The notes beneath the pieces were generated by a model. The model ran no database searches and had not been told where the DNA came from. It worked only from the letters and a program-made list of their open reading frames with translations. A DNA stretch of 64,000 bases from contig CAVQMM010000001.1 in assembly GCA_963713615.1 (NCBI GenBank), positions 128,001 through 192,000 of the forward strand. The letters run 5' to 3'. Origin of the DNA: an uncultured Chlamydiae bacterium (GTDB lineage Bacteria; Chlamydiota; Chlamydiia; Chlamydiales; JAJFMA01). Position 1 is the stretch's first letter. Each line of letters starts with the position of its first letter. Shown here one piece after another: positions 42,840-45,773 of this stretch. Position numbers and translations under genes: made by a program.

Positions 42840-45773
42840 CTAATTCATGCTTGGATTTATACGTTTAAATACCTCTTTCTCTTTGGAAAATGTTTCCAAA
42901 TCTGGACGATACTTAAACTGTTTTTTTAAACCACGAACCGTTTCCTGCTCGTCTTCCGCCATTTCTGTACGCTTTTTCCATTTGTCATATTTGCTTTGAA
43001 CGTCTGACATCACAACAAGCCACAATGCCGATACATACCAGCTCCGCTCACCTTCTTTGATCATATGCTGACCGCTCATTGGTCCTGAATCGGGAATGTC
43101 TTCGTTATACATAAAACCACGATCTTGCTTCCAGTTCCCGATTTCTTTGGTGTCTGAAACGAAGACATGGACATTTTCAAATATGTTCCTAGGGATTTTT
43201 CGCGCTTGAACATGGGGTACATACCCTTTATCGTCATTACGCATCCAAAAACTCATTTGACGGGCTAGCCCTGTCCAATCAAGCCCTCCAAATTCTGTAA
43301 ATGGCTGTACGATCTCCTCCTGGAGATTCGTATATGCCGCCAAGGCTATGGTAAAGCCCTCTGCCATTTGCCTTCCTATTTCTTTTACATAGTCTTCATT
43401 TTGCCAATCCATCTGTTCGCGCTCTCGACGTCCCAAAATGAGCTGATCGACAAGTAAATAGGAAGCTGCGTAGTGAGCCAGAATAAAAGACTCTATTCCT
43501 TGCATTCCTATAAGCGACCTTTCCTTAAAAGGCGTTTCCGCAATATTAGTTATGATATTATCGATTAAATCTACGTCAGCCGCATCAGCTAACCCTGAAG
43601 CTCGAGCGTTGGGATATTCTATGGAGCCCCAAATATTTCTTAACCTCCCCGTGCCTTGGCCCGTCACCCTAAACAGATCTGGGAGAGGCAGAAATAAACC
43701 TTCATCTGGTCTGGCTTCTTGTAAAGCTAGGTTAGTGGGATTTGTAAAATGAAAAAGATCTGCAAGGGCCGTATACACGATGCCATGCTGTGCCAGGACA
43801 AAAAGGTCGTGGAGCATAGCCACACGAGCCGTCTTGTAATCTTCAGGCGTTAAACTAGGATCGTGTAAATACCGAAAATAGCTGTCGTCTGAAAATTCAT
43901 AGATATAAGCATTTACGCAGCGGTCTTCTAAGGCGATTTCTTTAGTTAATAGTTCATGAAAATGACTAGGAAAATTTGTGAATCGACAGACATCGATGGG
44001 GGTAGGCCAAGTTGTCAGTAATCCTCGGGGTGATCTCTCAGATGTCAATTCTTTGGCCTTTTCTGAAGTCAGGAGTTTCACAACATGTAGTTCTCGCCAG
44101 AGGGCATCAACTTGCTCGGATGCGCTTTGGAGTTTTATGGCACGATATTGACCTTGCGGGTTTTTGAAAAGGAGCGTTCGGCCTAATGCTTTTTCAAAGC
44201 CCCACCCTTCAATCATTGTCCAAAACGGAACATTTTTTAGCTCTGCCAGTTCGCATGTGATGGCCTCACGATAGGCCGTAGCAAAAGCTGATGTGGGTTT
44301 CAAGGAATGATGGGGAGATTCAAATGAAGATAGAAGCCTTTCTACCAATAGCGCCCAATTGGCACTTTCTACTCCCGACTCGCTGATGTCTAAAAATTCT
44401 AATTTGAAGCATTTTTCTAAAATAGGATGTAGTAGATTTGGATGAAAAAATAAAAATTGAAAGTAGTCCTTTAACCACTTAACAGGAATCTGACGTAGAG
44501 GGAAATAACTATTAAATGAGTTGGACGAGAACAATGTATGCATCAAAGCGATCTTATAGAAATTGATGTTTTTTTCAGGTGAAAAACCTTGGGCTAAGAA
44601 TGTTTCTATCTGCTTCTGTAGATCGGACAGCTGGACATACGGAACTGTTCCTTCTTTTTGGATCAATAAATTTTTCAAGTAATTCTCAAATTCATTAGAT
44701 GGAATTATATTAAATAGGTCAATAATTATTTTCTTTTCTTTTTTTTCATCGAGTTTTCTAAATAACTGTTTTATAGAATTTTCAGATTCATGAAAATCTA
44801 TTTTATTGTCTATGAGATAGGAAAAAATGCGCAACTGCTTAAATCTATTTGCAAAGTTTGTAGATGGAAGGATTTTTTCTAGACGTTTGGAATATTTTTT
44901 AGGAAGAATGTTAGCATAATCTTCTAAGGTCACACTTGTAGGTAATTGTAGTTTATAATCCACATTGAATGGGTTGTTAAAAAAGTAGTTAGTTAATATT
45001 TTTCTTATACTTTTGCTTATTTCAGTCGAATGCTTAACTTTACCTTTTGTTACTTTATCTATTATGTTCTGAGTTTTAATTGGTATTTCGTACCCTAATT
45101 CTTTTAATGTAGCACTCATTTCTTCTAAGGCAGACACATAAACGTCATTATCGAGGAAATACTTGACGGCGTCAAGCATGTGCTTGAGATAGATGGAGTC
45201 GATATCCTCAGTCGATAAATATGGAGATAGAACTGAAATTTCACGATGAACGTCAATAATATTTATCATTGAAGAATACACCGGAGGCCTTATGTTTTTT
45301 AACACTATTCTTTTATAACCCTTTGCAAGCTCTATGAAACGACTGCATGCACTATCCGCTTGGTCTATCTTACCAAGTAGATACAATTGTTTTGTATAGT
45401 GTGAATATAGATGTAACTTTGCTATAGGAGAAGTTACAGATTCAATAAAATCAAATATTTCTTTTACGTTAGTGTCAGTCGAGTTTTCCTGCAGGAAATT
45501 CATAAGTGGTTGACAAACCTCTTTTCCTATTATCTCACTAGACCGATCCCATGCTTGTTTGTTTATATACCAGTTATGTTTAAATGAATACTTATTGTTT
45601 AAAGATGAAATATTATAGTAGAGATCATGATTGAAACATTGAGTGATTTTATCAATTTTTTCACTAAAGTCTGCAAGTGACTTACTTATGTTAAAATTCG
45701 GAGTTGTATTGAATGTGTCAATAACCGGATTTGCTATTAGAGACTCATTGAATGTTAATTTAAAGTTATCCAT
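42840..45773 (-). CDS. SidJ-family pseudokinase (putative protein polyglutamylase effector)
   Basis: GRT-x13-K-x5-E-x7-E, YLHD...DLFH, GR-x9-YPNARASGLADAAD match the SidJ catalytic pattern as recalled. Confidence 0.82.
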   Translation of the reverse strand: MDNFKLTFNESLIANPVIDTFNTTPNFNISKSLADFSEKIDKITQCFNHDLYYNISSLNNKYSFKHNWYINKQAWDRSSEIIGKEVCQPLMNFLQENSTDTNVKEIFDFIESVTSPIAKLHLYSHYTKQLYLLGKIDQADSACSRFIELAKGYKRIVLKNIRPPVYSSMINIIDVHREISVLSPYLSTEDIDSIYLKHMLDAVKYFLDNDVYVSALEEMSATLKELGYEIPIKTQNIIDKVTKGKVKHSTEISKSIRKILTNYFFNNPFNVDYKLQLPTSVTLEDYANILPKKYSKRLEKILPSTNFANRFKQLRIFSYLIDNKIDFHESENSIKQLFRKLDEKKEKKIIIDLFNIIPSNEFENYLKNLLIQKEGTVPYVQLSDLQKQIETFLAQGFSPEKNINFYKIALMHTLFSSNSFNSYFPLRQIPVKWLKDYFQFLFFHPNLLHPILEKCFKLEFLDISESGVESANWALLVERLLSSFESPHHSLKPTSAFATAYREAITCELAELKNVPFWTMIEGWGFEKALGRTLLFKNPQGQYRAIKLQSASEQVDALWRELHVVKLLTSEKAKELTSERSPRGLLTTWPTPIDVCRFTNFPSHFHELLTKEIALEDRCVNAYIYEFSDDSYFRYLHDPSLTPEDYKTARVAMLHDLFVLAQHGIVYTALADLFHFTNPTNLALQEARPDEGLFLPLPDLFRVTGQGTGRLRNIWGSIEYPNARASGLADAADVDLIDNIITNIAETPFKERSLIGMQGIESFILAHYAASYLLVDQLILGRREREQMDWQNEDYVKEIGRQMAEGFTIALAAYTNLQEEIVQPFTEFGGLDWTGLARQMSFWMRNDDKGYVPHVQARKIPRNIFENVHVFVSDTKEIGNWKQDRGFMYNEDIPDSGPMSGQHMIKEGERSWYVSALWLVVMSDVQSKYDKWKKRTEMAEDEQETVRGLKKQFKYRPDLETFSKEKEVFKRINPSMN

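Follow-up and report, generated by a model that had tools for sequence, protein, structure and literature searches.

We analyzed a gene in a 64,000-nucleotide stretch of DNA from an uncultured Chlamydiae bacterium (contig CAVQMM010000001.1, positions 128,001 to 192,000 of the forward strand; hereafter the window) and found that its product is a true relative of SidJ, the calmodulin-dependent glutamylase of SidE proteins from Legionella pneumophila, both by sequence and by predicted fold. The gene is an open reading frame (ORF) of 977 codons plus stop on the minus strand (45773..42840), recognized from the ORF list and its translation and assigned by phmmer and a family profile; its start codon is the first ATG, which three in-frame codons separate from the upstream stop. 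Based on this kinship, we propose that the protein (P0001) is an ATP-dependent two-step protein glutamylase, probably delivered to a host cell, and we hold this reading with slightly better than even confidence. Its target would be other than SidE, because searches of the genome turned up no SidE domain, and its trigger other than IQ-bound calmodulin, because the C terminus has no IQ motif.

In the proposed mechanism, a glutamate side chain in the target protein would be adenylated with ATP at the kinase-like site, H675 and R688 would hold the resulting adenylate, and a free glutamate, positioned by R710, would attack the adenylate and thereby become ligated to the target. The protein would be exported into the eukaryotic host cell, probably via the chlamydial type III system, and its N-terminal module (residues 1 to ∼325) would choose the target or the place of action. 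We infer from the conservation of its residues that P0001 would catalyze both adenylation and glutamylation, and we likewise infer that it is secreted and that its substrate is a host protein.

Kinship with SidJ and the active site

The relationship to SidJ is carried by sequence searches and structure prediction alike. Searched with phmmer against all chains of the Protein Data Bank (PDB), P0001 matched four distinct sequences at E ≤ 1, all four of them SidJ (E 4.4e-20 to 1.4e-18); in the match to 6k4k_A, an 873-residue chain (E 5.6e-20), residues 529 to 743 of the query align with SidJ 349 to 555 in full-length numbering. The whole 977-residue protein matched 0 Pfam families at E ≤ 1, Pkinase included, and the gene would look anonymous because no Pfam model matches it. 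A word-index search returned 18 proteins including the query, and the profile of these, run over 1.84 billion cluster representatives, recovered 802 representatives at E ≤ 0.001, of which 342 reach E ≤ 1e-30. An alignment of 77 family members (A2) served as the source of the family profile, of the column counts given below and of the input to AlphaFold2. This 77-member profile matches SidJ with E 2.1e-120 across SidJ residues 171 to 861, a similarity that chance could not produce. The AlphaFold2 model, made on the same alignment without templates, has a mean predicted local distance difference test score (pLDDT) of 80.3 and a predicted template modeling score (pTM) of 0.77, with residues 380 to 950 mostly above 90 and residues 1 to 280 mostly poor. 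When the model was compared with the PDB by Foldseek, the best 13 matches were all SidJ (E 4.7e-19, with probability 1.00, to 2.4e-16), and the next match had an E value of 7e-3. VIA-align superposed model residues 300 to 977 on SidJ 138 to 821 with a Z score of 31.3 and a root mean square deviation of 5.5 Å over 559 aligned residues (∼20% identity); its second neighbor was vaccinia E2 (7phy; Z 15.9), and ordinary kinases reached at most 8.9. An initial annotation of the window, made from the sequence without database searches, had called the protein a chlamydial SidJ relative: the profile and Foldseek matches bear out the kinship, and the genome is indeed chlamydial, with a Chlam_OMP6-domain gene in the window.

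Along its length, P0001 begins with a lineage-specific, mostly helical N-terminal module (residues 1 to ∼325, 44799..45773 on the minus strand, as are all parts of the gene), delimited by own-genome alignments and a profile of the module (A4). The helical residues ∼326 to 505 (44259..44798) are the equivalent of the SidJ base domain according to VIA-align, with pLDDT mostly 70 to 95. The kinase-like catalytic core follows at residues ∼506 to 905 (43059..44258), recognized by phmmer, the family profile and Foldseek and modeled with pLDDT mostly >90; it contains R532, K547, E553, E561, Y635, H675, R688, F694, R710, Y720, N722, D730, D733 and S900. The secondary structure of the model places three C-terminal helices (906 to 938, 942 to 955 and 962 to 972), with a basic SKYDKWKKR stretch, in residues 906 to 977 (42843..43058). 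Eight of 10 structural alignments to SidJ start at SidJ 137 to 219 (model 300 to 401), and the two made without trimming of low-confidence residues start at SidJ 122 (model 55 and 58).

The initial annotation had also named 11 active-site residues, and a script located every one of them where it had been placed: R532 (GRT), K547, E553, E561, Y635 (YLHD), H675 (DLFH), R710, Y720, N722, D730 and D733. The SidJ equivalents proposed for them, namely, R352/K367/E373/E381, Y452/H492 and R522/Y532/N534/D542/D545, were reproduced by counting along the phmmer alignment, and the spacings within the blocks (15/6/8; 40; 10/2/8/3) are indeed identical in the two proteins because no alignment gap falls inside any of the three. 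The SidJ numbering used there is right and matches K367, E381, R352, N534, D542, D545, H492, Y532 and R522 as they appear in print. Further pocket residues lie beyond this set: in the profile alignment, SidJ R500 is kept as R688, Y506 is replaced by F694 and N733 is replaced by S900. The F694 codon (43692..43694) was placed by alignment columns and the S900 codon (43074..43076) by the profile alignment to SidJ and column counts. Logan contigs from four runs labeled peat metagenome provided nine short pieces identical to the gene, none spanning the whole of it; a metagenome contig with 0 differences over 43680 to 43830 confirms the F694 codon, and the S900 codon lies outside the contigs found. 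None of the sequencing runs listed for the gene was an RNA run.

Conservation across the family is high at most of these positions. Among the 77 members, H675 is kept in 77, N722 in 76, E553 and D730 in 75, R688 in 74, R532 and Y635 in 73, K547 in 72, R710 in 70, E561 in 68 and D733 in 67, and the column of Y720 holds tyrosine in 52 and phenylalanine in 18. Sulpizio et al. (2019, PMC6858067) reported that the substitutions K367A, D542A and H492A abolish glutamylation by SidJ and that N534A severely impairs it, that R352A and Y506A reduce it slightly and that E381A and D545A have little effect. In the account of Osinski et al. (2021, 10.1101/2021.04.13.439722), K367, N534, D542 and Y532 make up the kinase-like site, where the target glutamate is adenylated, R500, N733, H492 and Y506 form the migrated pocket that holds the acyl-adenylate, and R522 positions the donor glutamate. 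P0001 is identical to SidJ where the alanine mutants abolish or severely impair activity (K547 = K367, D730 = D542, H675 = H492 and N722 = N534) and at the donor-glutamate arginine (R710 = R522). The predicted enzyme is therefore probably active by this pattern of residues, with reduced or altered chemistry of the second step being possible.

N-terminal module, C-terminal tail and candidate targets

SidJ binds calmodulin via an IQ helix, IQxxxRxxRK, with I841/Q842 (Sulpizio et al. 2019, PMC6858067). The structural alignment of P0001 stops at SidJ 821, before this motif. P0001 belongs to a small clade found in three of the four genomes of one genus and on one metagenome contig; none of P0001 to P0005 contains the pattern [ILV]Q..[FWYLM][RK], and P0006 matches it only once, at a position before the final 130 residues. 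Instead of the IQ motif, the members of the small clade have in common a basic K-A/Y-x-K-W-K/R-x-R stretch that directly follows the last core helix. Across the family, 35 of 153 proteins, including P0007, P0008 and P0047, have the IQ pattern within their last 130 residues. Because many members, among them the sister of the clade, P0007, have a longer C-terminal domain that is followed by AAxxIQxFWR-like motifs, the absence of the IQ motif from this clade looks derived. P0007 also has ankyrin repeats.

The N-terminal module matches no Pfam family. Its residues 72 to 157 model as four helices (pLDDT ∼70 to 89) and its remainder is of low confidence; an ESM Atlas search with residues 1 to 440 gave a best score of 0.85, which we regard as a lead only. 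The A4 module profile marks six places in the window's own genome, that is, the SidJ-like gene, a 1212-codon paralogue that is also SidJ-like, three proteins of ∼600 residues and one of 499 residues. In the other genomes of the genus, it occurs twice in G001 and once in G003, only inside SidJ-like genes, and 0 times in G002 and G004; a word-index search with the module returned two proteins, both from the own genome, and the standalone module family was seen in this genome only. The three ∼600-residue paralogues (G000:C1:1347049-1348902(+), 3527010-3528926(-) and 808441-810246(-)) each carry a KKRKA cluster 9 to 13 residues before the C terminus, which we take to resemble a classical nuclear-import signal. 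The 499-residue protein (P0153; G000:C1:3286172-3287749(-)) combines the N-terminal module with the C-terminal tail of the clade and has no kinase-like core, which gives it the appearance of a naturally occurring catalytic-domain deletion. An Inc-like membrane anchor was considered and set aside: P0001 has no hydrophobic N-terminal segment of this kind, and the moderate N-terminal hydrophobic segments of some clade members, with 15-residue Kyte-Doolittle means of 1.3 to 1.9, are too weak to call.

Given these two ends, we tentatively suggest a more specific version of the proposal, which is possible without being probable: P0001 may be a calmodulin-independent glutamylase in which the basic KW-helix replaces the IQ motif and the N-terminal module, with its paralogues tailed by the nuclear-import-like KKRKA cluster, steers the enzyme to a protein of the protist host. 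If true, this would provide the first non-SidE substrate of kinase-fold glutamylation and a new trigger for it. The core-less 499-residue paralogue implies that the two ends are useful without catalysis, and it thereby gives some weight to the idea that P0001 itself is a true pseudoenzyme, without catalytic activity, and acts as a scaffold by binding a partner via its N-terminal module and its C-terminal tail; for vaccinia E2, the next structural neighbor, we know of no enzyme activity. We consider a silent scaffold very unlikely, however, as all SidJ-essential residues are kept and the conservation of the core is typical of the family; its end branch (0.43), close to those of the nearest relatives (0.38 and 0.35), shows no excess divergence.

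The composition of the gene sets its 5′ part apart from the rest. In a genome of 3.97 Mb with 46.8% GC (99.1% complete), codons 1 to 450 of the SidJ-like gene have 30 to 33% GC and codons 451 to 977 have 40 to 45%, which makes the gene a compositional chimera; segment GC and a sliding profile place the approximate break at codon ∼450 (44424..44426). Only 0.12% of the 1.5-kb windows of the genome fall below 36% GC, and the own-genome 1212-codon paralogue has 42 to 50% GC throughout. Recent recombination that brought the 5′ part may account for this pattern, and it is the sole explanation that we offer.

We found no candidate SidE target. The profiles SidE_PDE (PF12252) and SidE_mART (PF19048) gave 0 matches in the genome, which extends to the whole genome the observation of the initial annotation that no SidE-like gene is visible in the window; they matched none of the 14 control genomes either. 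Among the ADP-ribosyltransferase families of the R-S-E type, neither PF03496 (ADPrib_exo_Tox) nor PF01129 (ART) was found in the genome, and PF01129 matched no control genome. These searches bear on the reading in which P0001 is a metaeffector like SidJ, glutamylating and silencing another secreted protein of the same chlamydia instead of a host protein. The sole characterized members of the family, SidJ and SdjA, are indeed described as acting on SidE ligases (PMC11696984; PMC6858067; 10.1101/2021.04.13.439722), and the six-member own-genome family with the N-terminal module could supply partners. Against this stand the four families not found in the genome, of which three also matched no control genome, and the lack of any neighbor gene common to the four clade loci; we judge a metaeffector unlikely, if worth keeping in view. 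For the export that the two-step glutamylase proposal calls for, a type III export-gate gene (FHIPEP, E 1.6e-227) is present in the genome.

Several points weigh against the two-step glutamylase proposal itself. In the column of F694 (SidJ Y506), 66 of the 77 members have tyrosine and 10 have phenylalanine, in that of S900 (SidJ N733) 71 have asparagine and 3 have serine, and alanine mutants of the acyl-adenylate residues of SidJ, Y506 and N733 included, are reported to be markedly less active (Osinski et al. 2021, 10.1101/2021.04.13.439722). These conservative, minority states within the family leave the membership of P0001 unaffected but do weaken a claim to full activity. Moreover, the own-genome 1212-codon paralogue retains both tyrosine and asparagine at these positions, and hence it may be the 977-residue copy that is weaker or is diverging. 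For the SidE searches, none of the 14 control genomes provided a positive control, which limits what their negative outcome may be taken to say about targets. The comparison of four clade loci (window, paralogue, G001 and G003), having yielded no shared neighbor gene, indicates no partner, and the foreign-looking codons 1 to 450 suggest that the present combination of domains may be recent.

The altered pocket (F694 and S900) also raises the prospect that the protein would only adenylate its target or would ligate something other than glutamate. Two of the four residues that stabilize the acyl-adenylate are off the family norm, and the two steps are separable in SidJ, where R522A still adenylates (Osinski et al. 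2021, 10.1101/2021.04.13.439722); on the other hand, the donor-glutamate arginine R710 is kept together with H675 and R688, and both changes are conservative, with precedents in 10 of 77 and 3 of 77 members, respectively. We regard such a restricted activity as decidedly doubtful and retain the two-step glutamylase as the preferred reading.

Distribution and surroundings of the gene

Among 41 relatives, the gene occurs in three genomes, namely, that of the window and two others from its genus, and a search for related loci with a narrower alignment (A3) returned only the two same-genus contigs already known. In a sample of the chlamydial phylum, a family member is present in 15 of 400 scored genomes and 11 of 212 genera (one further genome, G044, is unscored), and in 0 of 24 genomes of the small-genome genus g39. 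We placed the family in a FastTree tree of 155 core domains, a quick run without a clade test; of 160 hits, the 5 with <300 matched positions were omitted, as were the 224-codon fragment L030 and four matches without a locus. There, P0001 groups with its own-genome paralogue, a pair from G001, the protein of G003 and a single metagenome protein (local support 99), and P0007 is sister to this small clade (support 98). The other homologues from chlamydial genomes are scattered over at least four further positions in the tree. The 13 chlamydial-genome rows require at least five label changes, which speaks for several acquisitions of the family by chlamydiae, as far as this tree can tell.

Elsewhere in the family, SidJ-like cores lie inside giant multi-domain proteins, such as P0030 (5544 residues), P0041 (4726 residues), P0139, P0115, P0068 and others, some with up to four matched stretches. 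The SidJ-like locus of G003 is surrounded by orphan genes of 619 to 861 codons.

In the window, a promoter-like TTGACA-17-TATAGT that matches the consensus at 11 of 12 positions lies 28 nucleotides 5′ of the ATG (45801..45829, minus strand, by consensus scan); it is suggestive only, and the 12 such sites of the region, set against a mean of 10.6 in shuffled sequence, are not above chance. Farther upstream, a repeat search found one copy of a 160-nucleotide dispersed repeat (45926..46085, strand not assigned), which forms a perfect direct repeat pair, 36966 to 37125 and 45926 to 46085. We considered this pair as the borders of an island and rejected the idea because the element, which resembles miniature inverted-repeat transposable or repetitive extragenic palindromic elements (MITE/REP-like), is dispersed, with 133 copies of at least 150 nucleotides spread over the two strands of the main contig, 108 of which have ≥97% identity. 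Just 3′ of the stop codon lies a 273-nucleotide inverted-repeat element (42486..42758, likewise unstranded) with 89-nucleotide arms, 92% complementary, and a 95-nucleotide loop; it contains a terminator-like hairpin at 42631 to 42613 and recurs in partial form many times across the genome (300 blastn pieces).

The neighbors of the SidJ-like gene are a PD-(D/E)XK transposase-like gene, a gene for a eukaryote-like Ser/Thr kinase, def, an orphan gene of 621 codons and tpiA. The kinase gene (47262 to 48884, minus strand) encodes a 540-residue protein with a Pkinase domain (E 1.5e-23) and a 270-residue N terminus that matches no known family; it shares the low-GC stretch with the SidJ-like gene, with the transposase-like gene (46145 to 47104) between them. 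Seven kilobases from the SidJ-like gene, 30590 to 36265 (minus strand) encodes an 1891-residue Rhs/YD-repeat protein with DUF6531, followed by a 170-residue ORF (30075 to 30587, minus strand) that has a second copy in the genome at 51% identity; the two could be a polymorphic toxin and its immunity gene. Farther away, an AbiEii-type toxin gene and its DUF6088 partner (25533 to 27280 and 27438 to 29369, both on the plus strand), a type IV toxin-antitoxin pair, adjoin a DDE transposase gene.

These surroundings and the breadth of the family (802 representatives at E ≤ 0.001, some of them giant and multi-domain, the longest with 5544 residues) bear on whether P0001 leaves the cell at all. A giant multi-domain architecture is typical of conflict systems, and together with the Rhs/YD-repeat gene 7 kb away, it would fit a protein that is not exported and acts within the bacterial cell or in interbacterial conflict. 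The bearer of the gene, however, belongs to an intracellular lineage with a type III system, a gene for a CesT-family type III chaperone (L015:8534-9052, G003:C5) lies ∼4 kb from the SidJ-like gene of G003, and we noticed no linked immunity-like small ORF beside the gene in the window. A non-exported role is accordingly the reading to which we give least credence, as highly improbable, and a glutamylase delivered to the host remains the one that we favor.

Meaning and comparison with known systems

Kinase-fold glutamylation is known biochemically only from Legionella SidJ and SdjA acting on SidE ligases, and the family is far larger than these two proteins. The small clade offers a tractable case outside Legionella: it keeps the essential catalytic residues, has no IQ motif and comes with no SidE found in the genome (by searches that matched none of the 14 control genomes either), and it provides two natural paralogues with different residues at two pocket positions as well as a paralogue without the core. 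If its substrate were found, it would become clear whether intracellular bacteria generally use protein glutamylation as a weapon against their protist hosts; such a finding would leave current understanding standing.

Relatives of SidJ outside Legionella are already in print. Sulpizio et al. (2019, PMC6858067) described homologues with the key motifs in Waddlia chondrophila, an Elusimicrobia bacterium and Desulfovibrio hydrothermalis, and Osinski et al. (2021, 10.1101/2021.04.13.439722) described them in diverse taxa, including archaea and crocodilepox viruses; Figure S9 of the latter may list chlamydial members. According to Osinski et al., only Legionella, among the taxa with homologues, has SidE or the IQ motif, the N-terminal domain is not conserved, and the substrates and activation of the non-Legionella homologues likely differ. 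As the initial annotation had it, then, SidJ relatives of chlamydiae have been noted (Waddlia, PMC6858067), and our full-text literature searches turned up no study of the function of a chlamydial homologue. P0001 is thus a new member of an already published, uncharacterized SidJ-like branch, and its unusual features are local: the N-terminal module with its KKRKA-tailed paralogues, the IQ-less tail, the core-less paralogue and the GC chimera.

Compared with SidJ (Lpg2155) itself, P0001 shares the base domain, the kinase-like core and the first C-terminal helices, and it is identical at R352, K367, E373, E381, Y452, H492, R500, R522, Y532, N534, D542 and D545. It differs in having no IQ motif, in the replacement of Y506 by F and N733 by S and in a genome in which SidE genes were not found. 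SidJ holds SidE by its own N-terminal domain; this domain has no counterpart in the chlamydial protein, which carries the ∼325-residue lineage-specific module instead. SdjA (Lpg2508), the paralogue of SidJ, belongs to the same family with the same Lys-Glu and Asp-Leu-Gly kinase-like motifs and is reported to both glutamylate and deglutamylate SidE proteins (PMC11696984). Outside the family, vaccinia E2 aligns over 264 residues (model 454 to 926) at 10% identity and gave no match in sequence searches. Haspin, CK2 and the Src-family kinases share the bilobed kinase fold (Z 7.4 to 8.9) and are without the insertion that builds the second pocket. It is this large insertion in the catalytic loop, forming a second nucleotide pocket, that P0001 has in common with SidJ only.

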